Below are positions 1 to 14,718 of a DNA stretch of 16,600 bases, in pieces. Every line of letters begins with the position of its first letter. Position 1 is the first letter of the stretch. The notes beneath the pieces were generated by a model. It saw only the letters and a program-made list of their open reading frames with translations. It was not told the DNA's origin and did not search any database. Origin of the DNA: Spirochaetota bacterium (GTDB lineage: Bacteria; Spirochaetota; UBA4802; JAGODF01); assembly GCA_026419015.1 (NCBI GenBank), contig JAOAAF010000033.1, positions 1 through 16,600 on the forward strand, given 5' to 3'. Both the position numbers and the translations under genes were made by a program.

Positions 1-19
1 AGATGTGTATAAGAGACAG
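1..19. other. Synthetic Nextera/Tn5 mosaic-end adapter, not biological sequence
   Basis: Exact 19-mer AGATGTGTATAAGAGACAG at the window start. Its reverse complement sits at the other end of the window. Confidence 0.9.
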
Positions 20-247
20 GGCTGGGGCAATGCGGCGTTTTTAATTGAACGATTTGAAAAGGAAAAATCAATCCATGTGAAACGCGCCTTGGTCTGGCTT
101 ATGCGATTTTCGCGACAGCCAGAAGAAGTGTTAGAAATGTGCACCCGGTATTATCGTATATCTGATAAGATTGTACAAAAAGCAATGCGCGAAACGTTAT
201 TGCATATAGGAGTGTCCGAACAGGAATTTTTCAATAAATTGAAATAG
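20..247 (+). CDS. C-terminal fragment of a hypothetical protein; the 5' part is lost because the contig begins in the adapter
   Basis: The reading frame runs through the adapter from position 5 to a TAG stop at 245-247. About 76 residues are real (GWGNAAFLIERFEKEKSIHVKRALVWLMRF...EQEFFNKLK), charged and helical in character, with no family recognised. The apparent GTG start at position 5 lies inside adapter sequence and is not a real start. Confidence 0.4.
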   Translation, partial: GWGNAAFLIERFEKEKSIHVKRALVWLMRFSRQPEEVLEMCTRYYRISDKIVQKAMRETLLHIGVSEQEFFNKLK

Positions 248-299
248 TGCAGGGAGTTTTTCGTATTATCCGCAACGATTACAACATCAGAGGGGGAAC

Positions 300-887
300 A
301 TGGGCAAAGTTGCGCTATTTGGTGGGACATTTAATCCCGTACATATGGGACACCTAATCAATGCCCAGTTTTTAATCAACGAGATGGATATTAATGCATG
401 TATTTTTATTCCTGCGCGGTATCCCGTTCATAAATCCATTGAACATGCTGCAAGCGAAGAAGATCGCTTTCAGATGTTGATGCGTGCAATTGAGAAGAAC
501 GTTAATTTCGAGGTATCGCGAATCGAGCTTGACAGCGACATGCCATCCTACACCGTGATTACTCTTGAAAAGCTTGTGCAAAAATATTCGCGCGATGAAA
601 TTTTTCTTGTCATTGGCGCCGATTCGTACAATCAGCTCTCAACGTGGCGTGAATATCGAAAAATTTTCGCCCTTTCAAAGATAATTGTACTTCGAAGGCC
701 TGGGGATGAAATCGATAAAGATCGATATGCAAAGGATGGGGGAAATTTTATTTTTGCGAATAATCCTTTGGTTGGGATCAGCTCGAGCTATATACGCCAG
801 CTCGTTTCGATTGGGAAATCAATTTTGTATTTGGTTCCCGATCGCGTAAGGGAATATATTATACAAAGGGGGCTGTATACGCGTTGA
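300..887 (+). CDS. nadD: Nicotinate-nucleotide adenylyltransferase (NaMN adenylyltransferase)
   Basis: 195 aa. N-terminus KVALFGGTFNPVHMGHL matches the (H/T)xGH nucleotidyltransferase motif and the GGTFDPxHxGH signature of NadD. RBS GAGGGGGA lies 4-5 nt upstream of the ATG. The stop codon overlaps the start of the next gene (TTGA). Confidence 0.9.
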   Translation: MGKVALFGGTFNPVHMGHLINAQFLINEMDINACIFIPARYPVHKSIEHAASEEDRFQMLMRAIEKNVNFEVSRIELDSDMPSYTVITLEKLVQKYSRDEIFLVIGADSYNQLSTWREYRKIFALSKIIVLRRPGDEIDKDRYAKDGGNFIFANNPLVGISSSYIRQLVSIGKSILYLVPDRVREYIIQRGLYTR

Positions 888-2002
888 AGAAAAAAATTGT
901 CATTACCGTTGCGATTCTCATCATTGCGATAATATCGCTTACTGCCTATCGGTATTATTATCTCATCACGCGGAATATCGTTGATGTGCTTATTGCACAA
1001 AAACGATTAATAAATATCCTTGTTGCAGGGAGTAATGTCTATCGGGAAAATCGTCATAGATTTTATTGCATCGTTTCCGTGAATCCTGAAAATGGAAAGA
1101 TTGGCATAACTTTTTTACCCCCTGAATTACAGATCGCGATGGGTTCCCGAGGAACTGATGTGCGTAAATTGTGCGAAATTGATTTTTCAGATTTTACAGA
1201 GTTGCGCGAATCCTTACAGCGCGAAATAAAATTGAATGTTCCTTTCTATGTTGAATTATATGCGGTCGATGTGGAAAGAATTGTGGATTTTGTTCGAGGA
1301 GTGGATATTTTTATCCTCGATCAAATTCCTCTTGGCAAAGGGTATATCTTTGGGCAGAATTATTTTGATGGCAGAAAGGTTTTAAAATATATTAATGAGG
1401 TTCCAGGCGGTTCAATTTTTAAAAAGTTCGATCGCATTCAAGATGTCGCATTTGCAATGTATTCCTCGAAAGAGCGATTCGATGGAGTATTTTCTTATGA
1501 ATTTGTGCAAGAACTAATAAAATTTTGCAAAACAAATATCATGCCACAAGAACTGTATTCTCTCGGGAAATTAGTTTTGAAAAAAGGTGTCCTAAGTTGC
1601 ACCGTTTTACCATGTGAAGTCGATGATTCGGGGCAGTATCGTTTTGATGAGATTTCTTATAAAATATACGAAAAAGAATTTTTAACCTCTCTTGTGAAAG
1701 ATGAAGAAAATGTGAGTGCGATTAAAGTTAAAATCCTCAATGGTACCGATATCCCGGGATTGGCGCGAAAAATGCGCAATCTTCTCATTCGAGAGGGACT
1801 CAATGTAGTCGAATTTGGCACCTCGCCCTATCCAAAATTACCATATTCGATTTTGATTAACCAAAGAGGAAATTACATCAACACAAACAAGACAGCTGAA
1901 TTAACAGGCATTAAACATATTTATCATGTTATCGACAATACTCAGTTGCACGATGTGCTCATTATACTTGGGAAGGAAAGTTTAAAAGGTGAGGAAGAAT
2001 AA
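884..2002 (+). CDS. LCP (LytR-CpsA-Psr) family protein with an N-terminal membrane anchor and a C-terminal LytR_C-like domain
   Basis: 372 aa. TTG start in a 4-nt overlap with the nadD stop. N-terminus MKKKIVITVAILIIAIISLTAY is a single transmembrane helix. The core NILVAGSNVYRENRHRFYCIVSVNPENGKIGITFLPPEL resembles the LCP motif NILLLGSDSR...DTIMLVSVNPK..VTLLSIPRD. The C-terminal block VKILNGTDIPGLARKMRNLLIREGLNVVEFGTSP resembles the LytR_C domain. Called from memory of these families, without a profile search. Confidence 0.65.
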   Translation: MKKKIVITVAILIIAIISLTAYRYYYLITRNIVDVLIAQKRLINILVAGSNVYRENRHRFYCIVSVNPENGKIGITFLPPELQIAMGSRGTDVRKLCEIDFSDFTELRESLQREIKLNVPFYVELYAVDVERIVDFVRGVDIFILDQIPLGKGYIFGQNYFDGRKVLKYINEVPGGSIFKKFDRIQDVAFAMYSSKERFDGVFSYEFVQELIKFCKTNIMPQELYSLGKLVLKKGVLSCTVLPCEVDDSGQYRFDEISYKIYEKEFLTSLVKDEENVSAIKVKILNGTDIPGLARKMRNLLIREGLNVVEFGTSPYPKLPYSILINQRGNYINTNKTAELTGIKHIYHVIDNTQLHDVLIILGKESLKGEEE

Positions 2003-2366
2003 GATTACAGAACGAAAGATATTAAATATTGCAAAGAGATGTGCTGAAAAAATTCATGAAAAAAAAGGAGAAGATATATTACTTCTCGATTTGCGCAAGG
2101 TTCACAATTATCTCGACTATTTTTTAATTGTAACGGGTAATTCGCTCTTGCATTGTCGTGCATTGGCACGTGAGGTTCAACGATTTATGCAAGAAGTTGG
2201 TTTCCCTGAACGCATACGCCCTCGCCTTGATTCGGGATGGATTGTGCTTGACTACAATGAAATTGTGGTACATGTCTTTACAAAGGAGCTTCGCGATCAT
2301 TATCAGTTGGAATACTTATGGGCGGATTCGAAACGCATCGAGTGGAAGTGTGCAGGTGATTCATGA
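1989..2366 (+). CDS. rsfS: Ribosomal silencing factor RsfS (Iojap/DUF143 family)
   Basis: 125 aa. GTG start overlapping the last 14 nt of the LCP gene. The sequence ILNIAKRCAEKIHEKKGEDILLLDLRKVHNYLDYFLIVTGNSLLHCRALAREVQRFMQEVG..WIVLDYNEIVVHVF matches the RsfS pattern (..AEDKKAEDIVVLDVR..S.ITDYFVIASG.S.RQV.AIA..V...G....DW.L.D.G.VVVHIF). Confidence 0.85.
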   Translation: MRKNKITERKILNIAKRCAEKIHEKKGEDILLLDLRKVHNYLDYFLIVTGNSLLHCRALAREVQRFMQEVGFPERIRPRLDSGWIVLDYNEIVVHVFTKELRDHYQLEYLWADSKRIEWKCAGDS

Positions 2367-3001
2367 AGAAAAATTCCGAAATAATGGAAAGATTAATTCG
2401 AAACATCAATCATGAAATAAAAAACCCTCTTACTGTCATACGCGGTTATGCGCAGCTTCTTACGATGAAAGAGGCAAACGCTGAGTTTCAAAAAAAGACT
2501 GGAATGTATATCATAGAAAATGTCGATCTCATCGACGAACGCCTCTCGGGGTTGTATCGTGCTTTTAACCTTCCTTCAGAAGAAAACGTATTGGTTAATG
2601 TATTGGATGAAATATCGTCAATAATCGAAAAGTATGAACCAGAGAAGAAGTCACGCATTCATATTGTTGCTGAACCGAATTGTGAAGTCCAACTGTGCAA
2701 AATGGCATTTCGCAGAACTATCGAGTGCCTAATTGGGGGGTTTAATTGGAATCGGAATCCAAATTCGGTAATTGAAATTTCTATAAAGAAAGTAAATGGC
2801 AACCTTGAGTTTTTTATAACGTATTCAAACACAGATTTTTCGAATTTTTCTCAAGAGTGGTTTTATTTGCCTTTTGTCGATAAAAATGTTTTTTGTTCGG
2901 GAATAGAGATTTTTGAAGTGTATTGTATTTCTGAGGCACAGGGGTGGAATTTTCAGATTATAAACGATGACAATAAAAATGGATTTTCGATTCGGGTATG
3001 A
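2363..3001 (+). CDS. Minimal NtrB-like histidine kinase core (HisKA plus a degenerate HATPase_c-like domain), with no membrane or sensor domain
   Basis: 212 aa. ATGA overlap with the rsfS stop. The H-box NHEIKNPLTVIRGYAQLL starts at residue 16 and closely matches the E. coli NtrB H-box AHEIKNPLGGLRGAAQLL. The downstream region aligns by eye with the NtrB catalytic domain: WFYLPFVDK against LFYPMVSGR, and the C-terminal NGFSIRV strand. The N-box Asn positions (IECLIGGFNW), the G1 box (SNTDFS in place of DNGPGI) and the G2 box (CSGIEI in place of GTGLGL) are not conserved. Confidence 0.7.
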   Translation: MKKNSEIMERLIRNINHEIKNPLTVIRGYAQLLTMKEANAEFQKKTGMYIIENVDLIDERLSGLYRAFNLPSEENVLVNVLDEISSIIEKYEPEKKSRIHIVAEPNCEVQLCKMAFRRTIECLIGGFNWNRNPNSVIEISIKKVNGNLEFFITYSNTDFSNFSQEWFYLPFVDKNVFCSGIEIFEVYCISEAQGWNFQIINDDNKNGFSIRV

Positions 3002-4404
3002 TTGGCGATTATCGAGTACTCATAGCTGATGATGAACCAGGAGTTCGTCAACTTCTGACAGAAGTGTTGGAAAGTACATTCAATGTTGAAAGCGTTGAAC
3101 GGGGCGATATTGTACTAAATAAAATACACGAAGGCCAATACGATATTCTCATTCTCGATTTAGAACTCCCTGGGCTTAACGGTATAGAGATTCTCAAAAC
3201 GATTCATGAAAAGAAAATGAAAATCACTGTGGTAGTAGTCACTGCATCGAATAACATTGAAACTGCAATAACGACCATGAAGCTCGGTGCGTATGATTAT
3301 ATCGTTAAACCGTTCGATACGGAGAAGCTTTTGGTGATAATGAAAAACATTGCTGAAAAGCTCGATTTAGAAAGGGAAGTTGATACGCTACGGGAGCAGG
3401 TTGGCGAGAAATATCGGTTCTCAAATGTAATAGGAAAATCTCCCGCAATGCAGAGAATATTTGCAACGTTAGAACGAGTTATTGATACTGATAGCACAAT
3501 TCTCATTTCTGGCGAAAGCGGCACTGGGAAGGAAGTAATAGCCCGAGCAATTCATTACAATAGCAATCGTCGGCAATACCCATTCAGATCAATCGATTGC
3601 AGCACTATTCCTCAGGATTTAATTGGAAGCGAACTGTTTGGACACGAAAAGGGTGCTTTTACGGGAGCTGTGTCGCGGAAGATTGGAAAATTTGAAGTTA
3701 CATCAAAGGGAACGCTTTTTCTTGACGAAATCAGCAATCTTTCAATTGATATGCAGGCGAAACTTTTGCGCGTTTTGCAAGAAAAAGAATTCGAGCGCAT
3801 TGGGGGAAATCAAATCATTAAAGTCAATACGCGAATTATTGCCGCTACCAATAAAGATTTGCGCGAATTGGTACGCCAAAGTCGGTTTCGTGAAGATTTA
3901 TACTATCGGCTTAACGTTGTTCCAATATACTTGCCTCGTTTGCGCGATCGAAAAGAAGATATTCCGCTTTTTATTGACCATTTTCTGAAAAAGTATAATG
4001 CCGAATATGGAAGGCAGGTCTCGATCGATATAAAAGCGCGTATCTATTTGACCAATTATAATTGGCCTGGGAATGTACGCCAGCTTGAGAATGTAATAAA
4101 GCGACTGGTATTGCTTTCATCGGGAAAGGTTGCTGATCTTGAGCAGGTAAAAATGATATTAGAGTTTGAAGGAGAACATCGCATTGCAACCAATATCGCT
4201 TCTCAAGAATTCAATTTTCCCAGCGAAGGGCGAATTTTAAGCCTTGAGGAAATGGAAAAAGCCTATCTTGAGCGCGTCTTAGAAGATTGCAATTATAATA
4301 TTTCGCTCACTGCGAAGGTGTTAAAAATTTCGCGAAAGACAATGCACAATAAACTTAAAAAGTATGGAATTCTTATTCGAAAGACGACAAATGCATCGTA
4401 TTAA
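2998..4404 (+). CDS. Sigma54-dependent response regulator / bacterial enhancer-binding protein, NtrC-like (REC + AAA+ sigma54 activator + Fis-type HTH)
   Basis: 468 aa. ATGA overlap with the kinase stop. The REC domain keeps its conserved acidic residues (ADDEP, phospho-acceptor D in ILILDLELPGLNG, T in VVVTAS, K in YIVKPF). The AAA+ domain has Walker A GESGTGKEV and the sigma54-contact loop GAFTGA (EKGAFTGAVS). The C-terminus has a Fis-type helix-turn-helix (ISLTAKVLKISRKTMHNKLKKYGI). The length equals that of E. coli NtrC (469 aa). Confidence 0.9.
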   Translation: MIGDYRVLIADDEPGVRQLLTEVLESTFNVESVERGDIVLNKIHEGQYDILILDLELPGLNGIEILKTIHEKKMKITVVVVTASNNIETAITTMKLGAYDYIVKPFDTEKLLVIMKNIAEKLDLEREVDTLREQVGEKYRFSNVIGKSPAMQRIFATLERVIDTDSTILISGESGTGKEVIARAIHYNSNRRQYPFRSIDCSTIPQDLIGSELFGHEKGAFTGAVSRKIGKFEVTSKGTLFLDEISNLSIDMQAKLLRVLQEKEFERIGGNQIIKVNTRIIAATNKDLRELVRQSRFREDLYYRLNVVPIYLPRLRDRKEDIPLFIDHFLKKYNAEYGRQVSIDIKARIYLTNYNWPGNVRQLENVIKRLVLLSSGKVADLEQVKMILEFEGEHRIATNIASQEFNFPSEGRILSLEEMEKAYLERVLEDCNYNISLTAKVLKISRKTMHNKLKKYGILIRKTTNASY

Positions 4405-4544
4405 AGGCTCTTTTCGAGTTCCTCTATCCCTTTTTGGAGAATTGCGTATTCTTTTGAGCCTTTCGGAAAGTTTTTCATGTATTTTTTAAAATATGCAATT
4501 TGCTCTTCTTTCCATTTGCGCATATCAAAATTATTTGTAAGCAT
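4401..4544 (-). CDS. Candidate 47-aa small protein (MLTNNFDMRKWKEEQIAYFKKYMKNFPKGSKEYAILQKGIEELEKSL), antisense to and overlapping the response-regulator stop codon
   Basis: Hand-translated ORF. ATG at 4544-4542 and TAA at 4403-4401. GGGGGA (a Shine-Dalgarno-like run) lies 4 nt upstream of the ATG. The peptide is lysine- and glutamate-rich with amphipathic helix character. It is absent from the ORF track (shorter than 60 aa) and has no similarity I can recognise. Confidence 0.3.
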   Translation of the reverse strand: MLTNNFDMRKWKEEQIAYFKKYMKNFPKGSKEYAILQKGIEELEKSL

Positions 4545-4596
4545 AATTCCCCCAAAAAATATAATAAACTGAAGTTTACTGGTATTTGTATCGGTA

Positions 4597-4628
4597 CAAT
4601 TTGATAATTTGTTAAATTGCTTTTTTTT
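4597..4628 (+). terminator. Candidate rho-independent terminator for the + strand operon (nadD..regulator)
   Basis: AU-rich hairpin CAATTTGATA / TTTGTTAAATTG (about 10 bp including 2 G-U pairs, 3-nt loop), followed by C and then T8 at 4621-4628. The stem is weak. Confidence 0.35.
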
Positions 4629-4664
4629 AAAAAAACGGCAGGAATATTATAATCTTCCTGCCGT
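4621..4664 (-). terminator. Rho-independent terminator for the - strand amt operon
   Basis: Perfect 10-bp stem AACGGCAGGA (4634-4643) / TCCTGCCGTT on the - strand with a 10-nt loop. On the - strand it is followed by T7 and then A8 (the T8A7 tract at 4621-4635 on the + strand). It lies about 40 nt downstream of the amt stop (4703). Confidence 0.6.
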
Positions 4665-4702
4665 CCGCGATTGTGTTAAGGATGTGCTTCACTATCCGTA
4701 AT

Positions 4703-6127
4703 TTATTTCATTGTGTATGATTCAAAATCAGGATATCCTTCCATTCCATGTTCGCCAATGTCGAGCCCTCTCAGTTCTTCTTCTCGACTTACCCGAATGC
4801 CCATCGTCGCATGCAATATGACCCATATGATCCAACTGAGGATAAACACAAATACGCCAACAATAACCACTCCTACTAATTGGTTTGCAAATGAAAGAAT
4901 TCCACCCCCATAGAAAAGTCCTACTGGAGGTTGGTTTTGTCCACCAGCCCATGGTGGTGCTGCAAATAGGCCAACTGCCAACGTACCCCAGACGCCATTC
5001 ACCAAATGCACTGAAATAGCGCCCACGGGATCGTCTATTCCCCATCTATCAATTGCAAGTACGAAGATAACTACCAAAACACCAGCAACGGCACCAATGA
5101 TGATCGCCCCCCCTGGGGAAACCCAGCTACAGGGAGCAGTAATTGCAACCAGACCGGCCAGTGCGCCATTTAATATCATCGAAAGATCTGGTTTCCCTAA
5201 GGTAATCCAGGCAATAATTGTTGCACTGATGGTTCCGGCAGCAGCAGCGAGATTTGTGGTCACAGCAATGCGCGCAATGTCTGTCGCAGATGCTGCCATG
5301 GTTGAGCCAGGATTAAACCCAAACCACCCAAACCAGAGAATAAAAACGCCAAGCGTTGCAAGCGTCATGCTGTGACCTGGAATTGGATTTGGTGAACCAT
5401 CGGGGTTGTATTTGCCAAGTCGAGGTCCCAAAACAATTGCACCAGCCAATGCTGCCCAACCGCCCACAGAATGGACAACTGTTGAACCAGCAAAATCCCA
5501 AAATCCTCTCTGAGCTAACCATCCGCCACCCCAGATCCAATGTCCGGTAATTGGATAGATAATTGCGGTGAGCAATACGGAAAAAATGAGAAATGCGATT
5601 AGTTTTATGCGGCCACCCACTGCTCCAGAAACAATCGTTGCCGCAGTTGCGCAGAATACGAGCTGAAAGAAAAATTTTGCAAATAACGGAACTCCCGCCC
5701 AATTGAGTGCGCTGTACACTCCTTGATATGCACTGCCAGTTGCGGGGCTGTTGTCTGGACCAGATAGCATCCATAATCCTCGATATCCCATAAATGCATT
5801 TCCATCGCCAAACATCAAACCCCATCCAATAAACCAAAAAGAAAGGGAAGCGATTGCAAAGACGATAAAGTTTTTCGCCGATATGTTCACGGAATTTTTT
5901 GCCTGCTGAAGACCTGATTCGACCATTGCAAAACCAAGGTTCATAAAAAACACCAAAACCGCGGCGATGAGCACCCACAGGGTATCGGCAATGATTTGTT
6001 GATTTGCGACTGCCGCTTGGATGTCCGCTAATCGTATTTCCGGTACTGTGGGCTCTTCTGCATACAGCGCGGCGCTGCACATTATCAACATTACGATAAG
6101 TGTGATGAGAGTACTTCGCGTTTTCAT
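4703..6127 (-). CDS. amtB: Ammonium transporter (Amt/MEP family)
   Basis: 474 aa. N-terminal signal peptide MKTRSTLITLIVMLIMCSAALYA, then a typical Amt start (TLWVLIAAVLVFFMNLGFAMVESGL) and multiple Gly/Ala-rich transmembrane segments. RBS GGAGG lies 7 nt upstream. Only 15 nt separate it from the glnA stop. Confidence 0.9.
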   Translation of the reverse strand: MKTRSTLITLIVMLIMCSAALYAEEPTVPEIRLADIQAAVANQQIIADTLWVLIAAVLVFFMNLGFAMVESGLQQAKNSVNISAKNFIVFAIASLSFWFIGWGLMFGDGNAFMGYRGLWMLSGPDNSPATGSAYQGVYSALNWAGVPLFAKFFFQLVFCATAATIVSGAVGGRIKLIAFLIFSVLLTAIIYPITGHWIWGGGWLAQRGFWDFAGSTVVHSVGGWAALAGAIVLGPRLGKYNPDGSPNPIPGHSMTLATLGVFILWFGWFGFNPGSTMAASATDIARIAVTTNLAAAAGTISATIIAWITLGKPDLSMILNGALAGLVAITAPCSWVSPGGAIIIGAVAGVLVVIFVLAIDRWGIDDPVGAISVHLVNGVWGTLAVGLFAAPPWAGGQNQPPVGLFYGGGILSFANQLVGVVIVGVFVFILSWIIWVILHATMGIRVSREEELRGLDIGEHGMEGYPDFESYTMK

Positions 6128-6142
6128 CTATACACCTCCTAG

Positions 6143-7606
6143 TTAAATTTCATAGTATAATGCGAATTCCCACGGGTGAGGGCGTAGTGCAATTTGGTCG
6201 ATTTCATTTCGGCGTTTGTATTCAATATAGGTTTCAATAAGGTCTTTTGAGAACACATCGCCCTTTAATAAAAACTCGTGGTCTCGTTCTAATCCTGCAA
6301 TTACTTCTGCTAAACTGCCTGGCGTGGAACGAATGTGTTTTTTTTCTGCAGGGCTAAGCTCATAGATATCATCATCGATTGGATCCGGCGGTTCAATTCT
6401 TTTTAAAATTCCATCCACTCCCGCCATTACCATAGCTGAAAAAGCTAAATATGGATTTGCCGAAGGGTCAGGGCATCGAAACTCGATTCGTTTTGCCTTT
6501 TCGCTTGTGCTATACATGGGTATGCGAACAGCAGCAGACCGGTTTCGTGCAGAATAAACTAAATTGATTGGCGCTTCATATCCAGGCACCAAACGACGAT
6601 AGGAGTTTGTAGTTGGCGCAGCAAATGCTAATACCGCTTCGATATGTGCAAAGAGTCCACCAATAAAATACCTCGCGGTCTCTGAAAGATCTGCATATTC
6701 CCCAAATTTATAAAATAGATTTCGCCCTTCCTTCCATAAGCTCACATGCACGTGCATCCCTGAGCCATTATCCATGAAAATTGGTTTGGGCATAAACGTC
6801 ACTGTTTTCCCATATCGAAAAGCAACGTTTTTAATTATGTATTTATAATTTACAAGGGTATCTGACATTCTCACCAATTCGTCTACACGAAGCCCGATTT
6901 CCGTTTGACCTGCTGTGGCTACTTCGTGGTGATGGAGATCGACCGCGATGCCACATGCGCGCAGTACTTCTACCATCTTTGAACGCAGGTTGTGGAGTTG
7001 ATCGTGCGGTGCAGTAGGGAAATAGCCTTGTTTGTATGGGATTTTATAACCTCTGTTCTCTAACTCGATGCCAGAGTTCCACGATGCTTCTGAAGAATCG
7101 ATTTCGTGAAATGCGCGATGTTGATTTTGATCATAGCGCACACGATCGAAGATGAAAAACTCCGGTTCTGGGCCAAAATAGGCAATATCGGCAACTCCTG
7201 TTGTTCGAAGGTATTCAATGGTTTTCTCTCCAACATAACGAGGATCTTTATGATAGCGGGCTCTTTTCACCGGATCAATGATATCGCAAAGGAACGAGAG
7301 GGTACGATGATCGTAAAAAGGATCGATGTATGCAGTTGAAGGATCGGGGCGCATCAGCATATCGCTCTGATGGATATGCTGAAAACCGCGGATTGATGAT
7401 CCATCAAAACCAGTTCCTACAGTAAAAAGATCTTCGTCGGCTCTGTCAGCAGTAATTGTGTAATGGTGGAGTCTGCCAAACAGGTCTGTAAACTTCAGAT
7501 CGAGAAATTCTATTTTCTTATCCTTTATGATGCGCAGAATTTCAGCAATCGAAATATGAGTTTTGGGTTCCTTTACCGTGTAGATTTCTTCAAATACCGC
7601 TTCCAT
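6143..7606 (-). CDS. glnA: Glutamine synthetase type I
   Basis: 487 aa. The N-terminal beta-grasp domain (LDLKFTDLFGRLHHYTI...GFDGSSIRGFQHIHQSDMLMRPDPSTAYIDPF) and the catalytic domain motifs are typical of GSI. The length matches GSI (about 470 aa), not GSIII (about 730 aa). The C-terminal region DDDIYELSPAE resembles the adenylylation loop NLYDLPPEE. RBS AGGAGGG lies 4 nt upstream of the ATG. Confidence 0.9.
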   Translation of the reverse strand: MEAVFEEIYTVKEPKTHISIAEILRIIKDKKIEFLDLKFTDLFGRLHHYTITADRADEDLFTVGTGFDGSSIRGFQHIHQSDMLMRPDPSTAYIDPFYDHRTLSFLCDIIDPVKRARYHKDPRYVGEKTIEYLRTTGVADIAYFGPEPEFFIFDRVRYDQNQHRAFHEIDSSEASWNSGIELENRGYKIPYKQGYFPTAPHDQLHNLRSKMVEVLRACGIAVDLHHHEVATAGQTEIGLRVDELVRMSDTLVNYKYIIKNVAFRYGKTVTFMPKPIFMDNGSGMHVHVSLWKEGRNLFYKFGEYADLSETARYFIGGLFAHIEAVLAFAAPTTNSYRRLVPGYEAPINLVYSARNRSAAVRIPMYSTSEKAKRIEFRCPDPSANPYLAFSAMVMAGVDGILKRIEPPDPIDDDIYELSPAEKKHIRSTPGSLAEVIAGLERDHEFLLKGDVFSKDLIETYIEYKRRNEIDQIALRPHPWEFALYYEI

Positions 7607-7621
7607 ATGCCCTCCTTTAAT

Positions 7622-8905
7622 TTAATCGAGTTCCTTTTTAACTGGAAGGCTTTTCTGTTCGCTAATGATACGCGTTAAATCGACACCAGTTGCATTGCGT
7701 ATTTGTTCGAGAAATGTGATGACCGTTGAGGTTACATCGCTTACGTGATTTGGAATACCACCATTACCTAATACCACAAGCTTTTCAATTTTTAGATTTT
7801 CGGCAATTGTGCGCGACACGTTATCTACAATATTGGGAAGAATGTGTAGCATAAACAGTTCCTTGCTTGCGCCATCCTGCCATTCGCTGCGCATTTCCTT
7901 TACCGCATTCGCCATCGCAAGCCCCTGTTCTTTTAAATACGATGCTTTGCCGATTGCTTTCAATTCATCGGCTTTCCTTTCGGCCATTGCCGGTACCACT
8001 AAATCAGCGTTGTATTTCAGCGAGTGCACAGCTTCTCGAATTTCTTCGACCTTTTTCTGTTGCAGAAGCGATTCGATTTGCCGTGCATATTCGGCACGCG
8101 CTTCTTTTGCATTCATTTGTTCATGCAAACTCGCGCGAAGTTCCCGGAATGATGTTTCGTATCGTTCTATTTCTGCTTTTGCTTTAAATTCAGCATCTGC
8201 TGCCTTTTGCTTAGACATCGATTCCACAATTTGTGCTTCTGCTTCAGCTTCTGCTTCTTTAATGCGCGCATCGCGTTTTACGATTGCATTTCGCTGTTTC
8301 CCCACAGCTTCAAGATATCCCTGCGAATCGTAGATTTCTTCGATTTTTACTGAGTCGAGAGTAAAGCCTAACTTAATGAGTTCTTCATGTGCCAATTCGT
8401 AAACTTTTCTTTCAAATTCAAGCCGTTTGTAGTTGGCATCTTCTGGGGTAAACGTTGCAATGACACCGCGCAACACACCCTCGATAGTATTTTTGGCTAT
8501 TGTCTCTATTTCGAGTTGTGGTTTTCCAAGAAGCCTTTCAACGGCATTTTCCAGTCCCGCTCCTTCTCGCGAGGCAATTTTTACGTGTGCAATGGCGCGG
8601 ATGAAAAGCGGTATCATCCCATTTGAAAGGGCACCTTCTATCTCAAGGGTGATTGGGATTGTTGCAAGCGAAAGTCTAGAAACTCTTTCGACTATCGGCG
8701 TTCGAAGTCCTACACCACCTCGAATCACGCGGTACCCCACTACTTCCCCTGTTGGGAGCTTTCTTTTTTTTCCAGAAAAAATGAGGATCTCATTTGGTTC
8801 ACAAATCTTTAAATTCACTTTTAGATAAATGAGAATCGTTGCGAACACAAGAATGATGATTGTACCAACAAGTGGCCAGTCAATGGTCGATAAATTGATG
8901 TTCAT
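7622..8905 (-). CDS. Flotillin-like SPFH/band-7 domain protein
   Basis: 427 aa. N-terminal membrane anchor (WPLVGTIIILVFATILIYL), then PNEILIFSGKK (flotillin-like PNEALVxTG start of the SPFH domain). A long coiled-coil follows, rich in E/A/K with an EAEAEAEA repeat, typical of FloT/YqiK-type flotillins. RBS GGAGG lies 5 nt upstream. It is spaced 26 nt from the PII gene and 15 nt from glnA. Confidence 0.75.
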   Translation of the reverse strand: MNINLSTIDWPLVGTIIILVFATILIYLKVNLKICEPNEILIFSGKKRKLPTGEVVGYRVIRGGVGLRTPIVERVSRLSLATIPITLEIEGALSNGMIPLFIRAIAHVKIASREGAGLENAVERLLGKPQLEIETIAKNTIEGVLRGVIATFTPEDANYKRLEFERKVYELAHEELIKLGFTLDSVKIEEIYDSQGYLEAVGKQRNAIVKRDARIKEAEAEAEAQIVESMSKQKAADAEFKAKAEIERYETSFRELRASLHEQMNAKEARAEYARQIESLLQQKKVEEIREAVHSLKYNADLVVPAMAERKADELKAIGKASYLKEQGLAMANAVKEMRSEWQDGASKELFMLHILPNIVDNVSRTIAENLKIEKLVVLGNGGIPNHVSDVTSTVITFLEQIRNATGVDLTRIISEQKSLPVKKELD

Positions 8906-8931
8906 AGCTACCTCCTATCAAAATACAAAAA

Positions 8932-9273
8932 TTATCCTATGGCACGCGAACCGCGTTCACCAGTTCGAATGCGAATGCATTCTTCAATTGGAATAATAAA
9001 AATTTTGCCATCGCCAATATTTCCCGTTTTTGCGCCACGCATGATCGCCTTAATGGTTGGTTCAACGTAGTCATCGTTTACGGCTATTTGCAGCTCGACT
9101 TTTTTAAGAAGCTTAATTTCGTGTTTTACACCGCGATATGACTCAGGGTATCCTTTTTGCCTTCCCGAACCAATAGCGTTAACAACGGTCATTAAATTTA
9201 CGCTTGCATCGTTTAATTCCTTTTTTACATCGCCAAGTTTTTCTGGTCTAATAATTGCGATTATCAATTTCAT
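8932..9273 (-). CDS. glnB: Nitrogen regulatory protein P-II (GlnB/GlnK family)
   Basis: 113 aa. [20 protein letters not shown]...[19 protein letters not shown]...[20 protein letters not shown] aligns along its whole length with E. coli GlnB (MKKIDAIIKPFKLDDVREAL...GFGRQKGHTELYRGAEY...GDGKIFVFDVARVIRIRTGE). The T-loop keeps a Tyr at the uridylylation position. RBS GGAGG lies 5 nt upstream. Confidence 0.9.
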
Positions 9274-9386
9274 GCTACCTCCTCTGATAGTACTAAAAAT
9301 TATCGTTGCACTTAATTCTTATAAAAAACTTCATTTTATTAAAATACTTTAACATTTAAATATTATAAATAATCACAATCACTTTA

Positions 9387-9415
9387 AAAATAGCGTGGAT
9401 TTGTCACAAGGTCAA
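9387..9415 (-). promoter_or_regulatory. Candidate sigma70-type promoter for the glnB-flot-glnA-amt operon
   Basis: On the - strand: TTGACC (9415-9410), a 17-nt spacer, then TATTTT (9392-9387), about 115 nt upstream of the PII ATG. No GG-N10-GC (sigma54 -24/-12) element lies anywhere between 9274 and 9590 on this strand. Confidence 0.3.
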
Positions 9416-9472
9416 TATTAAAACAAAAATATTGAAGTGATATAAGGAAATTTTACAATTTTGAAATGAAGC

Positions 9473-9490
9473 TGTAACAAATTTGTAACA
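9473..9490. promoter_or_regulatory. Direct repeat TGTAACA-N4-TGTAACA (11-bp phase) upstream of the nitrogen operon; candidate regulator binding site
   Basis: TGTAACAAATTTGTAACA at 9473-9490. Repeats are at 9473 and 9484, about 60 bp upstream of the putative -35 box. It reads as TGTNA-N8-TNACA, one base off the TnrA/GlnR-type TGTNA-N7-TNACA box. Confidence 0.25.
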
Positions 9491-9589
9491 TTGAAAAAAG
9501 ATTTAATTATCTTTGATGCGAAAGAGGAGTTTGTTTAGAATTGTTTCTTTTATGTAAAATTTTAATGTTATTTAAAAATGTTATATAAT

Positions 9590-9621
9590 AAAATAGCCGC
9601 AGAAATTTTTACGGCTATTTT
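9590..9621 (-). terminator. Rho-independent terminator for the enoyl-CoA hydratase gene; a hairpin with U-rich sequence on both sides
   Basis: Perfect 10-bp inverted repeat AAAATAGCCG / CGGCTATTTT with a 12-nt loop, flanked by A/T runs, about 28 nt downstream of the stop at 9649. Confidence 0.55.
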
Positions 9622-9648
9622 ATTATTTTGCAATTTACAGAAATTTTT

Positions 9649-10443
9649 TTATTTATCAGAAAATTTTGGTTCTCGCTTATTTAAAAAAGCATCTATGCCT
9701 TCTTCTTTGTCAGCGGTTTCGCATAGTGATCCAAAAATTTCCCTTTCATGCCGCTGTCCGTCATAGTAGTCCATGAGCAATCCATCTCGAATTGCTTTCA
9801 TTGCTCCTCTAATTGCCATGCGGCTTTTTTTTGCAATATCAGTGGCAAGTTTTTTTGCCTCCTCTACCACTGTGCCAGCAGATACCGCGCGATTCACTAA
9901 CCCATAGAGTTCCGCTTGTTTGCCGGTTAAAAAATTACCGGTTAAAATGAGTTCATACGCACGGCCTCTTCCAATGAGGCGAGGGGTTCGTTGGGTACCG
10001 CCGAATCCTGGGATAATACCCAATTTTATTTCAGGAAGACCCATCTGTGCATTTTCATCGATAAGGCGAATGTGACAGGCCAGAGCAAGTTCAGCGCCAC
10101 CGCCAAGGCAAAAGCCGTTAATCGCAGCAATGAATGGTTTATCCGCTTTTTCGATGAGATTTAGCACCTCTTGGCCATTTGCGAGAAAATTTATACCTTC
10201 TTGTGCAGTTTTTAAATTTTTTATTTCTTTTATGTCGGCACCAGCGATGAATGCTTTCCCTACCCCAGTGAAAACGACTACTCGAACATTATCGTCAGAA
10301 AGTGCTTTCAACACCGTGTCGCGTATATCATCGAGAATCTGAGTGCTTAGGGCATTCATTGGTGGATTGTTGATTTCCATGAGCGCAATTCCTTTTTCAT
10401 CAACAGAATAGTAGCATTTTTTGTCTTGATTAACAACAGTCAT
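9649..10443 (-). CDS. Enoyl-CoA hydratase/isomerase (crotonase superfamily)
   Basis: MTVVNQDKKCYYSVDEKGIALMEINNPPMNALS...VVVFTGVGKAFIAGADIKE...GFCLGGGAELALACH are the oxyanion-hole signatures of the crotonase fold. The start is placed at the internal ATG (10443-10441), which has GGAGG 7 nt upstream. The longest ORF (to 10506) adds 21 residues with no RBS. Confidence 0.85.
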   Translation of the reverse strand: MTVVNQDKKCYYSVDEKGIALMEINNPPMNALSTQILDDIRDTVLKALSDDNVRVVVFTGVGKAFIAGADIKEIKNLKTAQEGINFLANGQEVLNLIEKADKPFIAAINGFCLGGGAELALACHIRLIDENAQMGLPEIKLGIIPGFGGTQRTPRLIGRGRAYELILTGNFLTGKQAELYGLVNRAVSAGTVVEEAKKLATDIAKKSRMAIRGAMKAIRDGLLMDYYDGQRHEREIFGSLCETADKEEGIDAFLNKREPKFSDK

Positions 10444-10571
10444 TATTTGCCTCCATATATAAAATTTCAAAGAATTTAACGAATACATTTTAGCGCATTT
10501 GTGCAACGCGGTGTCAAATATTTTATTGACATATGTAATTTGCCGATAATCATTTGAACAGGAAAATATGC

Positions 10572-10994
10572 ATGGGGATAAAGAAATTACAACATTTAGT
10601 GATTTGTATACAAGCGATTGTAATTGCCAACACTTCGCATCGCGGTGTCTATTCGCAAGAGTTGTTGCTTCGAGATTTATTGCTCGAGAGCGATAAATTT
10701 GTTGGCAAACAAATTACGATGCGATTAAAGTTAAAGCATGTCGATTGGACTTTTGGTAAAGTGTACTTTTACGACAAAAAAAATTTTGATGTTGCTTTCG
10801 ATATTTCACTGCAATTAGAAATGGAAGAATACCGAAATGAAATACGTTCGTTGCGCGAAGGGATGGATTTTGAAGTGACATTTTTGTTTCAGGGAATTGG
10901 CAACGTTGGAATGATTAATGGAGAGCTTATTAAGTTCGTTCCCACAATTTTGCAAAGATTGCCAGAAGGCGAAAGTAGGCAAACTATAAAGTGA
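10572..10994 (+). CDS. Hypothetical protein with a predicted N-terminal signal peptide
   Basis: 140 aa from the ATG at 10572, which has AGGAAA 8 nt upstream. The track's TTG start at 10554 adds 6 residues. KK is followed by the hydrophobic stretch LQHLVICIQAIVIA and then NTSHRG, which looks like a signal peptide or membrane anchor. No family recognised. Transcribed divergently from the hydratase gene. Confidence 0.45.
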   Translation: MGIKKLQHLVICIQAIVIANTSHRGVYSQELLLRDLLLESDKFVGKQITMRLKLKHVDWTFGKVYFYDKKNFDVAFDISLQLEMEEYRNEIRSLREGMDFEVTFLFQGIGNVGMINGELIKFVPTILQRLPEGESRQTIK

Positions 10995-11160
10995 AGAGCA
11001 GAATAGCTGGGCGGCTATCCTGCCCTCCAAAATCTGGTTGAGTAAACACAGTGCACAAGAACAAAGCGGTACAACGTTAGGGAGGGAATTACCACATTGT
11101 TCCCGGCATTTCCTTTATCGGTATAAAAAGTAAAATTCTTGAGCATTTTTTATTAAGAAA

Positions 11161-12087
11161 ATGACGGGTATTGTTCTAAAAGGATATGGATTATATTATG
11201 ATGTTGTGGTAAACGGCAATCGCTTGCGTTGCACGTTAAAGGGGAAGCTTCGCACTCGTCGTGACTTACAAAAATTCTCCAACCCCGTTGCTGTTGGGGA
11301 TGTAGTTAAAGTAGAAATCGGTCCTAATGGCAATGGCGTAATCGTCGATCTTGAGAAAAGGAAAAATACATTTTCACGGAAAGAGAAAGGGAAAAATAGC
11401 CGTGAAGATATAATTGCGGCCAACATCGATTTAGTAATCATCATTCAATCTTTTTATAAACCGCGCCTTAATCTCCGCTTTGTCGATAGGCTCATGGTAC
11501 GTGCGAAAATGGATGCGATTCCCGTGTTGTTGTGTTTTAATAAAATTGATCTCGCCAACAAAGCGGATGAACGGTATGTGCGCGATTATTATGCGCATTC
11601 CCAAGCTGATATCGTTTGTACAAGCGCGGTAACTGGTCAGGGACTTGATGTATTCAAAGCATTTGTGTGCAACAAGATTGCACTTTTAGTAGGCTATTCT
11701 GGTTCGGGAAAAACGAGTATTCTCAATGCTCTTTTTCCTGAAATTAAACTACGCGTATCTGAAATATCCGAAAAAACCGGAAAGGGCAAACATACCACGA
11801 CTAATGTGGAGATGATCGAACCGCAGGTGGGGTATCGGTTAATCGATACCCCCGGTGTTCGTGAATTTGGGATTCTCGATTTGCATCCGAATGAGCTGGA
11901 AGCATTTTTCCCCGATTTTTCCGATGCGCGAAAGAAGTGCACATTTAAACCTTGTACGCACGAACATGAACCAAATTGCCATGTGCAAAAAATGGTTGAG
12001 AAGGGAGCAATTCATCCCGACCGTTATTTATCGTATTTGTATTTGCTTTCATCGTTAAAAGAATATTATTCGAGGATGTATACGTGA
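11161..12087 (+). CDS. rsgA: Ribosome small-subunit-dependent GTPase A (RsgA/YjeQ)
   Basis: 308 aa. N-terminal OB-fold region, then circularly permuted GTPase motifs in the order G4 (FNKIDL), G1 (GYSGSGKTS), G3 (DTPG), and a C-terminal zinc knuckle (KKCTFKPCTHEHEPNCHV). This arrangement is diagnostic of RsgA. Confidence 0.9.
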   Translation: MTGIVLKGYGLYYDVVVNGNRLRCTLKGKLRTRRDLQKFSNPVAVGDVVKVEIGPNGNGVIVDLEKRKNTFSRKEKGKNSREDIIAANIDLVIIIQSFYKPRLNLRFVDRLMVRAKMDAIPVLLCFNKIDLANKADERYVRDYYAHSQADIVCTSAVTGQGLDVFKAFVCNKIALLVGYSGSGKTSILNALFPEIKLRVSEISEKTGKGKHTTTNVEMIEPQVGYRLIDTPGVREFGILDLHPNELEAFFPDFSDARKKCTFKPCTHEHEPNCHVQKMVEKGAIHPDRYLSYLYLLSSLKEYYSRMYT

Positions 12088-12821
12088 TTGACGTTCGGAA
12101 TCTTGTTGTGGATTTCGGAAGCGGCCCGATCTTGGACGGAATAGAGTTTTCTGTCAAGGAAGGCGAAACAGCCGTGGTAATGGGGAAAAATGGTTGCGGG
12201 AAATCGGTGCTTTTGAAAACCATCATCGGGCTGATTCAACCTACAAGCGGTGATGTGCTGATATCAGGTATTTCAGTTGGAAAGGTAATAAAACATGAAA
12301 GGCCACCTGTTGAAGTAGGATATGTGTTTCAAAAGGGAGGGCTTTTCGATTCGATGACAGTGTTCGATAATGTAGCGTTCCCATTAAGGAGAAAACGTAT
12401 TCCCGAATCGGATATTGAAAAGCGCGTTCGGGAGGTACTCGCAATGGTTGGCCTTGAGGGGAACGAATATAAATTCCCGTCTGAATTGTCAGGGGGGATG
12501 CAAAAGCGCGTGGGACTTGCGCGAGCGATTTGTAAAAATCCACAAGTCGTTTTGTATGATGACCCAACGGCGGGACTTGATCCAATACTTACCGATTCAA
12601 TTTGCGAGCTGATGATATCGCTGCGCGAGAGCTACCGCATTACGTCGGTGGTTGTAACGCACGATTTGAAAGTTGCAGAAAAGATTGCAAATAATATTTT
12701 TTTAATCTATCGTGGAAAATTAGTATTTTCCGATTCTGCGGATGCGTTTTTCTCATACACCTCCGAGTACGCGCGGCAGTTTTGTGAAGGCGAAATTGAG
12801 GGACCAATTGATATATATTGA
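12084..12821 (+). CDS. ABC transporter ATP-binding protein, MlaF/Ttg2A-like
   Basis: 245 aa. GTG start in a GTGA overlap with the rsgA stop. Walker A GKNGCGKS, ABC signature LSGGMQKRVGLARA, Walker B VVLYDDPTAGLD. No permease or substrate-binding gene lies within the window. Confidence 0.85.
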   Translation: MIDVRNLVVDFGSGPILDGIEFSVKEGETAVVMGKNGCGKSVLLKTIIGLIQPTSGDVLISGISVGKVIKHERPPVEVGYVFQKGGLFDSMTVFDNVAFPLRRKRIPESDIEKRVREVLAMVGLEGNEYKFPSELSGGMQKRVGLARAICKNPQVVLYDDPTAGLDPILTDSICELMISLRESYRITSVVVTHDLKVAEKIANNIFLIYRGKLVFSDSADAFFSYTSEYARQFCEGEIEGPIDIY

Positions 12822-12942
12822 ACGCAGAGAACACACCGAATTGCGAAATTGTCGGGTTGAAGAACGCCATCCCCATGAAATATTGTTGACAAAATGCAGG
12901 CATGATGATGTGATCTTTACTACTTTACTATATCTTCGCAAG

Positions 12943-12957
12943 AATTGTAACACAATT
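12943..12957. promoter_or_regulatory. Perfect 15-bp palindrome AATTGTAACACAATT upstream of ilvE; candidate operator
   Basis: Arms AATTGT and ACAATT around the centre AAC. It contains the same TGTAACA heptamer found twice upstream of the glnB operon. It lies 30 nt upstream of the ilvE ATG, between a TTGACA hexamer (12886-12891) and the RBS GGAG (12972-12975). Confidence 0.25.
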
Positions 12958-12987
12958 TTTTAGCCGATACTGGAGTGATGTGTATTA

Positions 12988-14025
12988 ATGAATAAAGCAA
13001 AAGTGCAAAAGGCGAATATCGATTGGAAGAATCTTCCATTTGGATATGTAAAGACGGATTACAATATCCGGTATTACTACAAAAATGGGCAATGGTCTGC
13101 AGGTGAACTCTCCTCTGATGAAATCATTCCCCTCCATATGGCTGCTCCCTGCCTCCACTATGGGCAGGAGGCGTTTGAAGGGTTGAAAGCGTTTGAGACT
13201 GTTGATGGAAGAATTGTCGCTTTTCGTCCCGATGAGAATGCAAAACGACTGGAAAGAAGTTGCGAACGAATATTTATACCAAAAATATCGGAGAATATGT
13301 TCCTCGATGCAATCAAACGCGTAGTTGCTGCCAATGCGCGTTTTGTTCCTCCTTTTGGCACAGGTGCTTCCCTTTATATTCGTCCACTTGTAATTGGTAC
13401 GGGTGCAAAGGTTGGACTTGGACCTGCGGAGGAATATTTGTTCATCGTATTTGTCACGCCAGTTGGACCGTACTATAAAGGGGGGTTTAAGCCGGTACGC
13501 GCATTAGTCATCGAAGAATTCGATCGCGCTGCTCCCCAGGGTGTTGGCGATTGCAAAGTGGGTGGAAATTATGCGGCTGGCCTTCGAGGAAGCGAATACG
13601 GCCACAAGAGGAATTTTCCAATAGTGTTATATCTCGATCCCAAAGAGAAACGTTATATCGATGAATTTAGTACGTCGAATTTTGTTGCAATAAAAGGCTC
13701 CACATATATTTCGCCTGATTCTCCTACAATTTTGCAGAGCATTACGAACAAAAGCCTGGGAGTAATTGCTGAAGAATTAGGAATGAATGTGGAGCGCCGA
13801 CAAGTCGATATTGCAGAATTGGAATTGTTCGATGAGGTAGGTGCGGTGGGAACAGCTGCGGTCATCACACCGGTTTATTCAATAACTTATCGAGAAAAAG
13901 AATATATATTTGGGACTCCGGATGCTGCTGGTCCAGTGATTACGAAATTATACGATCGATTAACAAAAATTCAAACGGGAGAAGTTGAAGATACGCACGG
14001 GTGGTTGTTTGAAATAGAAGTGTAG
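12988..14025 (+). CDS. ilvE: Branched-chain amino acid aminotransferase (PLP fold type IV, long form)
   Basis: 345 aa. NLPFGYVKTDYNIRYYYKNGQW..., YGQEAFEGLKAF, ASLYIRPLVIGTG and VGTAAVITPV match the long-form IlvE proteins of about 340-365 aa (Bacillus YbgE/YwaA, mycobacterial IlvE). Confidence 0.85.
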   Translation: MNKAKVQKANIDWKNLPFGYVKTDYNIRYYYKNGQWSAGELSSDEIIPLHMAAPCLHYGQEAFEGLKAFETVDGRIVAFRPDENAKRLERSCERIFIPKISENMFLDAIKRVVAANARFVPPFGTGASLYIRPLVIGTGAKVGLGPAEEYLFIVFVTPVGPYYKGGFKPVRALVIEEFDRAAPQGVGDCKVGGNYAAGLRGSEYGHKRNFPIVLYLDPKEKRYIDEFSTSNFVAIKGSTYISPDSPTILQSITNKSLGVIAEELGMNVERRQVDIAELELFDEVGAVGTAAVITPVYSITYREKEYIFGTPDAAGPVITKLYDRLTKIQTGEVEDTHGWLFEIEV

Positions 14026-14058
14026 CGATCAAAGGCAATTAAAACATGATCGGTTTTG
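14026..14058 (+). terminator. Weak candidate terminator after ilvE
   Basis: CGATCA (14026-14031) / TGATCG (14047-14052) with a 15-nt loop, followed by GTTTTG. The large loop and short stem make it marginal. Confidence 0.2.
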
Positions 14059-14667
14059 CCAAACTTGTGCTTTAAGAAAAATCATAAATTATAATTCTTT
14101 TTTCATTGATTGAGATTATTAACGGTGTGGTGATGGATTTCACGATTGCTTCTCTCTATTTTTCAGCAGGGAAAAATTATAAAAAGGATTTTACAAACGA
14201 AAATTTCCGCAGCAATATTTTTGATCTAATATAATGATCGCTTAAATCCCCCTCTTGAAAAACTCCAAAGTGATATTGGGATTTGGCCAATATTATATCG
14301 TTATGTTCACAATAAACATCTTAACGTGGTAATTTGGATGTTGTTGCATTCATGATGCGGTTATCAGGATATTTCACGTCCTTGCGTGCGGAAATTCCAG
14401 ATGTACTAAAGCTCAGATTTCCAAATACTATTTGTAATCATAATCCATATATGAAGGGCAAAAGTTCTTCGATAGAATGGTTGTGGCAAAAATGGAGAAC
14501 TTGCGAAAAATTAGAATTATTAAAGCTAAATAATTGCATGTTTTTGCAATTGAAGTTTTTTCCCAAGATTTTGTACAAACAAAATGAAAAAAAGTTGATG
14601 AAAGGATTAAGTGTATTTGATTTAATAATTCGCAAATGGTAGAAGTCAGATCGTAGAAGAATTTTTA

Positions 14668-14696
14668 TTGAAAATTACAATCTATGGCAATACAAT
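14668..14696 (+). promoter_or_regulatory. Sigma70-type promoter for lon
   Basis: TTGAAA (14668-14673), a 17-nt spacer, then TACAAT (14691-14696). The predicted transcription start is about 14703. RBS GGAAGG (14708-14713) lies 5 nt before the ATG at 14719. Confidence 0.5.
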
Positions 14697-14718
14697 TGGC
14701 TTATAAACGGAAGGTATT

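Follow-up and report, generated by a model that had tools for sequence, protein, structure and literature searches.

Why would a flotillin, a member of a family known for membrane scaffolding, be encoded in the middle of an operon for ammonium uptake and assimilation? The question is raised by a 16,600-nucleotide (nt) stretch, one complete contig, of a metagenome-assembled genome assigned to a Spirochaetota bacterium (assembly GCA_026419015.1, contig JAOAAF010000033.1, positions 1 to 16,600; the whole stretch is referred to as the window hereafter), where four consecutive minus-strand genes encode, in the order of transcription, a PII protein of the GlnB/GlnK family (8932-9273; 113 amino acids, aa), a flotillin-family SPFH protein (7622-8905; 427 aa), GlnA, the type I glutamine synthetase (GS; 6143-7606; 487 aa), and the ammonium transporter Amt (4703-6127; 474 aa). 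The answer that we favor, with somewhat more confidence than doubt, is that the protein belongs to a widespread subfamily of flotillins without the NfeD partner that serves as a dedicated component of ammonium uptake and assimilation and corrals Amt, perhaps together with PII. The parts of this answer are not equally firm: that the flotillin is functionally linked to the Amt-PII module is very probable, and that it physically corrals Amt has close to an even chance of being correct.

The four genes had been described as one transcription unit in an initial annotation of the window, and their coordinates, strand, lengths, spacing and GGAGG sites turned out to be exactly as given there. The gaps between PII and flotillin, flotillin and GlnA, and GlnA and Amt measure 26, 15 and 15 nt, respectively, and each of the three holds a GGAGG positioned 6-8 nt 5' of the ATG, as read from the sequence. 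Strong terminators lie outside the block only, in agreement with the same annotation. At the 5' end, a minus-strand intrinsic terminator that belongs to the enoyl-CoA hydratase gene located upstream (9585-9626; a stem of 17 base pairs (bp) followed by a U-rich tract; folding energy of -21 kcal/mol and z-score of -7.7 against shuffled sequences) marks the operon boundary, and at the 3' end another minus-strand intrinsic terminator (4626-4666), with a 12-bp GC-rich stem (4633-4666; -18.7 kcal/mol, z-score of -4.7, and 0 of 200 shuffles folding equally well) and a U7 tract, closes the operon. The three intergenic gaps fold no better than shuffled sequence (z-scores of -0.3, -0.6 and +0.2), and consensus hits inside the block occur at about the frequency expected by chance (14 promoters vs. 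12.8 expected and 7 terminators vs. 4.9 expected); that is, no promoter or terminator appears to isolate the flotillin gene from its neighbors. Given the tight gaps with their GGAGG sites, the terminators at the two ends only and the chance level of internal hits, the block is almost certainly a single, co-transcribed PII-flotillin-GlnA-Amt operon, which is probably induced under nitrogen limitation. The further statement of the annotation that the flotillin is expressed in a stoichiometric context, however, over-reads operon membership.

The assignment of the 427-aa protein to the SPFH/flotillin group, also part of the annotation, is borne out by profile and fold comparisons alike. The protein matches Band_7 (PF01145) over residues 34-222 (E-value 1.8e-18; 67.7 bits, cutoff 23.6), and a family profile built from 24 members aligns with human flotillin-1 over profile positions 31-416 of 428 (9l3g_A; E-value 1.3e-58) and also with flotillin-2 (3.6e-48), compared to just 4.5e-5 for stomatin. 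The top Foldseek matches are the cryo-electron microscopy structures of flotillin complexes 9l3g and 9bq2 (E-value ~1e-19 over ~422 columns, 26-27% identity), followed by prohibitin and HflK/C (~1e-10) and then by stomatin, erlin and vault. The AlphaFold2 monomer model (mean per-residue confidence, pLDDT, of 73; exceeding 85 in the coiled coil and in the core of the SPFH domain, but low over the C-terminal ~60 residues) predicts a hydrophobic N-terminal transmembrane (TM) helix (residues 10-31), a beta-rich SPFH domain (32-193) and a single unbroken EA-rich helix of ~147 residues (197-343; containing EAEAEAEA), with the C-terminal region thereafter. We conclude that the protein is a true flotillin family member, homologous over its full length to flotillin-1/2. 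It is not an orthologue of FloT, as its score against the FloT equivalog NCBIfam NF058507 (141 bits, covering model positions 4-283 of 477) is far from the cutoff of 700, and matches to NCBIfam ZorA (E-value 0.004) and Pfam FTA4 (0.005) were discarded as coiled-coil noise. The basic residues that follow the TM helix (K29, K33 and KKRK at 46-49) would, by the positive-inside rule, place the SPFH domain and the bulk of the protein in the cytoplasm, alongside PII and GS. A separate feature of the same region is the motif N31-x3-C35-x-P37-N38-E39 (residues 31-39; window 8789-8815), which is located just past the TM helix, does not vary among 24 diverse members of the family and, including its conserved juxtamembrane Cys, aligns with CGPNE at the extreme N-terminus of human flotillin-1.

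Is the arrangement peculiar to this genome? All nine metagenomic homologues that were checked (43-72% identity to the window flotillin) are found in same-strand clusters of Amt, PII and GS genes, with unrelated flanks and in four gene orders, i.e., PII-Flot-GS-Amt in P0009, P0005 and P0012 (68-72% identity), GS-Amt-PII-Flot in P0027 (57%), Amt-PII-Flot-GS in P0046 (48%), and Amt-PII-GS-Flot in P0028, P0030, P0042 and P0059 (43-52%). In a survey with one genome per GTDB species, the best 80 of 538 relatives were analyzed, with neighbors found by tblastn using the PII, GS and Amt of the window and chained within 1.2 kb; the flotillin was linked to nitrogen genes in 62 of the 80 species representatives, or in 65 if a 1.4-kb gap was allowed. 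The order Amt-PII-GS-Flot was the most common among these loci (28/80), followed by Amt-PII-(NfeD)-Flot (13/80), PII-Flot-GS-Amt as in the window (9/80) and Amt-PII-Flot-GS (3/80), and several further linked loci represent truncated or compound versions. Of the 18 loci with no nitrogen gene in the 1.2-kb chain, three have Amt-PII at a distance of about 1.3 kb, and two do not extend far enough on the side in question to be judged. Linked representatives belong to Spirochaetota, Syntrophales/Smithellaceae, Desulfobacterales, Zymogenaceae, Acidobacteriota/Vicinamibacteria, Gemmatimonadota/Longimicrobiales and Rhodothermales, and the linkage thus spans at least seven lineages from several phyla, at least five gene orders and unrelated flanks. 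This is far beyond chance and, since the linkage has been kept across phyla despite shuffled order and unrelated flanks, it is the signature of selection rather than of one inherited accident. The association of homologues with nitrogen genes, on which the annotation had made its proposal depend, therefore holds in both samples.

A rough neighbor-joining tree divides the family into clade A, which lacks NfeD, and clade B, which comprises Rhodothermales and Latescibacterota. A same-strand nitrogen gene is present in 49 of 49 evaluable clade A loci, the extrapolated gap having a median of 25 nt and staying within 139 nt in 48 of them, as opposed to clade B, where Amt-PII precedes the flotillin in about half of the loci and an adjacent GS in none. 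Clustering of the open reading frames (ORFs) that flank the clade A genes (50 loci entered, including the truncated locus L044; the naive ORF caller used also yields antisense shadow ORFs in GC-rich genomes) recovered four recurrent families only, namely flotillin, GS, Amt and PII. A fifth conserved partner, such as a protease, NfeD or a GATase, was sought in the same clustering and rejected, none being present in more than seven loci. Individual loci do carry additional genes: a class I glutamine amidotransferase (PF00117) is encoded directly 3' of the flotillin in two Amt-PII-GS-Flot loci (L007, 7306-7998; L008, 7330-8010), and glutamate synthase (GOGAT) genes are found near the flotillin clusters of L004, L007 and L010, which form larger nitrogen-assimilation islands. 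All members found derive from metagenomes or metagenome-assembled genomes (MAGs), with no cultured host in the look-up of cluster members, and the flotillins carry no more specific annotation than "SPFH domain-containing" or "flotillin family". The sources include sulfidic caves and, judging from "AnMBR" in the isolate name of L012, an anaerobic membrane bioreactor. The MAG-only origin probably explains why the linkage went unnoticed.

The missing NfeD, which the annotation had pointed out as unusual for a flotillin operon, deserves a closer look. No match to NfeD (PF01957) was obtained for the window ORFs scanned, a set that covered every long frame but the one at 14707-16599, which runs off the contig end, and the 26- and 15-nt gaps beside the flotillin gene leave no space for such a partner. 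The lack of NfeD is a clade-wide trait of the nitrogen-linked flotillins. In clade B, an ORF of ~200 aa is found directly 5' of the flotillin gene, and two of the four such ORFs tested show weak similarity to NfeD, which is restricted to the C-terminal partner-binding domain (PF01957 E-value of 2e-4, under the gathering score); in Rhodothermales these NfeD-like ORFs are situated between PII and flotillin (L063, 6174-6788; L083, 6335-6913; L072, 6302-6898; L080, 6302-6946). The Amt-PII-NfeD-flotillin order looks like an evolutionary intermediate between the classic NfeD-flotillin pair and the NfeD-less nitrogen operon. SPFH2 genes without NfeD do occur elsewhere, NfeD being a usual but not a strictly required companion (PMC2636767).

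Which of the three nitrogen proteins is the flotillin associated with? Amt and PII are the common denominator of the linkage and GS is frequent yet dispensable; since the Rhodothermales clusters (at least 13 of the 80 loci) have no GS nearby, Amt plus PII is a likelier client than GS. The window PII matches the P-II family (PF00543; E-value 7e-27) and scores below the equivalog cutoffs of both NCBIfam GlnB (105 bits; cutoff 202) and GlnK (104 bits; cutoff 181). Its T-loop has Arg47 (YRG) and, at position 51, His instead of Tyr, a pattern shared across the clusters, where Arg47 is present in 56 of 56 PII sequences and Tyr51 in just two (the others having His, Glu, Val or Gln), and where the end of the T-loop is characteristic (YRGV-HE-LLKK). 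Arg47 is the residue that plugs the AmtB pore in the E. coli GlnK-AmtB complex, in which GlnK reportedly inserts its T-loop into AmtB. Judging from these residues, the cluster PII is not of the type uridylylated by GlnD, would presumably still be able to insert its T-loop into Amt, and appears to represent a distinct subgroup that travels with the flotillin. A Desulfobacterales MAG (locus L032, 11356-13126) carries, directly 3' of a PII-Flot-GS-Amt cluster, another GS and another PII, the latter having the canonical T-loop with Tyr51 (YRGAEYVVDF); the two types of PII thus coexist. The other two partners score above their profile cutoffs, with GlnA reaching 632 bits against TIGR00653 (cutoff 429) and containing both GS domains (PF00120 and PF03951), and Amt matching PF00909 (E-value 4e-125) and TIGR00836 (428.6 bits; cutoff 343.3). 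The Amt translation begins with a signal-like segment and contains the motifs …STVVHSVGGW… and …AISVHLVNGVWG… (the second also written …AISVHLVNG…), which we take, from alignment by eye to the E. coli Amt, to be the twin-His motifs.

Upstream of PII, three candidate activator boxes on the minus strand (9452-9490) read TGTTAC (9490-9485)-N5-TGTTAC (9479-9474)-N16-TGTAAA (9457-9452), and their spacings of 11 and 22 bp put them in helical phase. About 40 bp downstream of the boxes lies a sigma-70-like promoter candidate on the same strand (9387-9415; TTGACC-17 nt-TATTTT), a consensus match only, which would give a leader of ~105-110 nt. The same boxes, again followed at much the same distance by a -35 element (TTGAC(A/C)), are found upstream of PII in eight Spirochaetota loci (L001, L002, L004, L014-L017 and L038), a layout conserved among the PII-flot-GS-Amt loci of this phylum. 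Because the 11-bp phasing resembles the direct repeats of response regulators, our guess is that the boxes form an activator site of the response-regulator type (OmpR/GlnR-like). In L001, a gene for an OmpR-type (Trans_reg_C) protein is located divergently upstream of the cluster. Loci L013 and L018 have a sigma-54-type TGGCAT-N5-TTGCT (at about -65 and -96 from the PII start, respectively) and no TGTTAC boxes, and the control of this operon seems to have switched, among Spirochaetota, between activator-assisted sigma-70 and sigma-54. The window itself encodes a potential sigma-54 activator on the other side of the operon: at 2363-4404 on the plus strand, convergent with amt, a 212-aa HisKA-only protein (no HATPase match) is encoded ahead of a response regulator with receiver, sigma-54-activator and HTH_8 domains, the stop codon of the first gene overlapping the start codon of the second. 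A pattern search 5' of the window PII (TGGCAY-N4-6-TTGCW) gave no sigma-54 promoter, and we thus dropped this activator (2998-4404) as the driver of the operon. No riboswitch or other leader RNA was matched by Rfam at gathering thresholds anywhere in the window.

Taken to the level of mechanism, the role that we favor would involve three steps. Like flotillin-1/2 and stomatin, the flotillin would form a ring- or dome-shaped oligomer at the cytoplasmic face of the membrane; this assembly would corral Amt trimers in a defined membrane patch and thereby stabilize or assemble them; and the patch would influence how PII, with its Arg47, and GS reach the transporter. A bolder version, which we regard as a long shot, is that the dome acts as a nitrogen nanocompartment, that is, a cage of ~30 nm at the cytoplasmic face that holds Amt trimers, PII and the GS dodecamer. 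If this were true, imported NH3/NH4+ would be converted to glutamine in a diffusion-restricted space with less back-leak and futile cycling, and PII would gate the transporter from inside. The protein would then also be the first flotillin of bacteria for which a set of metabolic clients is defined, and it would provide a physical basis for the long-debated coupling of Amt and GS.

Several points weigh against a dedicated, Amt-corralling flotillin. Both the contact with Amt and PII and the transcription of the block as one unit are deduced, the former from genetic linkage and the latter from sequence, and about 15-18 of the 80 relatives, the most distant ones, do not show the linkage. The Amts that are linked to flotillin are 29-79% identical to the window Amt and come from different Amt subfamilies, for which reason any flotillin-Amt interface must, on this evidence, be generic or lipid-mediated. 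A comparison of nitrogen-linked with NfeD-linked flotillins gave no obvious clade-specific surface patch, and a clade-specific interaction surface was rejected as a candidate, the differences amounting to scattered conservative substitutions and an 11-residue indel in the coiled coil. Finally, the bacterial flotillins that have been studied, FloT and FloA, serve a broad range of clients or act on membrane fluidity in general (PMC7360373, PMC11222466).

Some of these points lend credit to an alternative explanation in which the flotillin is a general membrane-state factor, co-induced with nitrogen-starvation genes and acting on membrane fluidity or order, or on many proteins, with no specific contact to Amt, PII or GS. 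Such a role would be in line with the B. subtilis flotillins, which work largely via membrane fluidity (PMC7360373), with the S. aureus FloA, which stabilizes many unfolded clients (PMC11222466), and with the divergent Amts and the lack of a clade-specific interface just described. A generic factor, on the other hand, would not be expected to stay with Amt-PII through so many gene orders and lineages at a median gap of ~25 nt, nor is any other starvation or membrane gene recurrent in the clusters. We consequently consider this explanation unlikely.

Two further alternatives keep a specific client and assign a different task to the flotillin, and we give each of them only a slim chance. The first is a quality-control or turnover adaptor, that is, a flotillin cage that governs the proteolysis of Amt when nitrogen returns, comparable to HflK/C with FtsH, prohibitin with the mAAA protease or stomatin with the NfeD protease. 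Regulated turnover of Amt had also been suggested in the annotation, structures of HflK/C-FtsH are among the fold matches of the window flotillin, and several SPFH families partner with membrane proteases, SPFH1, SPFH3 and SPFH4 being linked to FtsH (PMC2636767). Against turnover, no protease gene is recurrent in the clusters, NfeD has been lost in the nitrogen-linked clade, and the NfeD-like ORFs of Rhodothermales are short, with the weak match noted above in the partner-binding domain. Moreover, we know of no protease partnership for the flotillin-type SPFH2 proteins. The second is centered on GS, which the flotillin would tether or enclose at the membrane beside Amt, thereby trapping imported ammonia as glutamine (channelling). 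The gene order is suggestive here, with GS immediately 5' of flotillin in the commonest arrangement and immediately 3' in that of the window; a cytoplasmic location is predicted for the SPFH domain, and metabolic coupling of AmtB and GS has reportedly been argued for E. coli. The Rhodothermales clusters, however, keep Amt-PII-NfeD-flotillin with no GS nearby. Finally, that the flotillin is a neutral passenger, brought in by a lineage-specific rearrangement as the annotation had allowed for, is effectively refuted by the linkage in 62-65 of 80 species from several phyla with shuffled orders and differing flanks, and we assign almost no probability to it. Hence, we favor the hypothesis that the NfeD-less flotillin is a dedicated partner of the Amt-PII module.

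Other features of the window are of less consequence for this hypothesis. Two putative plus-strand ORFs of 146 aa (10554-10994) and 102 aa (14334-14642) have no Pfam match, and an open frame of 631 codons (14707-16599, plus strand) runs off the contig end, with an N-terminus (…PLFPGMMIPLVL…) that resembles, by eye, the substrate-binding domain of Lon.

How does the operon compare to known systems? The annotation had considered a flotillin within a nitrogen operon to be undescribed, and our search of full-text literature agrees provisionally: no paper tying flotillin, SPFH or band 7 proteins to amtB, glnK, glnA or NtrC was found in a corpus that mostly does not cover subscription journals, and the few co-occurrences of flotillin and nitrogen genes were irrelevant. 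A survey of SPFH proteins in 497 genomes likewise mentions no nitrogen-gene neighbors (PMC2636767). Provisionally, therefore, the novelty is twofold: a known scaffold family has a conserved, dedicated genomic partnership, and a fourth gene, undescribed so far, is part of a classical nitrogen operon. The Amt-GlnK-GS module is among the best-studied microbial regulatory systems and is regarded as complete, and bacterial flotillins, widely studied as they are, have to our knowledge no agreed specific clients. The flotillin described here is a candidate for a missing component that stabilizes or insulates ammonium transport and couples it to PII and GS.

The window flotillin belongs to the same family as the products of the NfeD-flotillin operons (e.g., yuaF-floT of B. 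subtilis and yqiJ-yqiK of E. coli; SPFH2 or p-flotillins; Hinderhofer et al. 2009, PMC2636767), with which it shares the N-terminal anchor, the SPFH domain, the EA-rich coiled coil and the C-terminal region, and its distant Rhodothermales relatives keep an NfeD-like ORF directly 5' of the flotillin gene. The window and the rest of the nitrogen-linked clade differ from these operons by having no NfeD, and the window gene is set between PII and glnA. Compared to the classical amtB-glnK and glnB-glnA operons, the window likewise has co-oriented genes for PII, with its conserved Arg47, Amt and a type I GS, but combines three nitrogen genes in one operon with flotillin as a fourth conserved gene, and 54 of the 56 cluster PII sequences, unlike classical GlnB and GlnK, are devoid of the Tyr51 uridylylation site. 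Among the SPFH cages with a dedicated membrane-protein client, HflK/C-FtsH is another bacterial example; it encloses a protease, belongs to a different SPFH subfamily (12% identity in the fold alignment) and forms a periplasmic cage.

The nearest conceptual precedent for the linkage is the set of flotillin-associated rhodopsin (FAR) clusters of SAR11, HIMB59 and Pseudothioglobus, where a flotillin gene is likewise found, by synteny, beside the gene of one polytopic membrane protein (PMC10308929). The flotillin and rhodopsin genes of FAR clusters are co-transcribed, suggesting a dedicated client, and they differ from the present case in that client, in the larger flotillin (1,977 bp), which forms a separate clade, and in their taxa and habitat (PMC10308929). 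The closest mechanistic precedent, by analogy, would be human stomatin, whose domes enclose AQP1 tetramers and trimers of the urea channel UT-B, with UT-B held centrally and bridged by lipid (PMC12407830). That is, an SPFH oligomer at the cytoplasmic face corrals one oligomeric channel that conducts water or a small neutral nitrogenous solute, which offers a plausible geometry for an Amt trimer, and the stomatin structures 9zd2 and 9z7u are among the fold matches of the window flotillin. Stomatin is an SPFH1 protein that forms a 16-mer far smaller than the flotillin dome, is eukaryotic and has no genetic linkage to its clients; the dome of flotillin-1/2 is a 44-mer of 32 nm (10.1101/2024.05.09.593390). 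Loss of stomatin and mutations in RhAG, a member of the Amt/Rh family, are both found in overhydrated stomatocytosis, a connection that is correlative only (cited in PMC12407830), and a bacterial partnership of flotillin and Amt would echo this unexplained link between an SPFH protein and an Amt homologue in human red cells. The NfeD-less flotillin and its Amt-PII(-GS) partners thus offer a natural, genetically defined pair in which the model of an SPFH cage corralling a channel could apply to bacteria.

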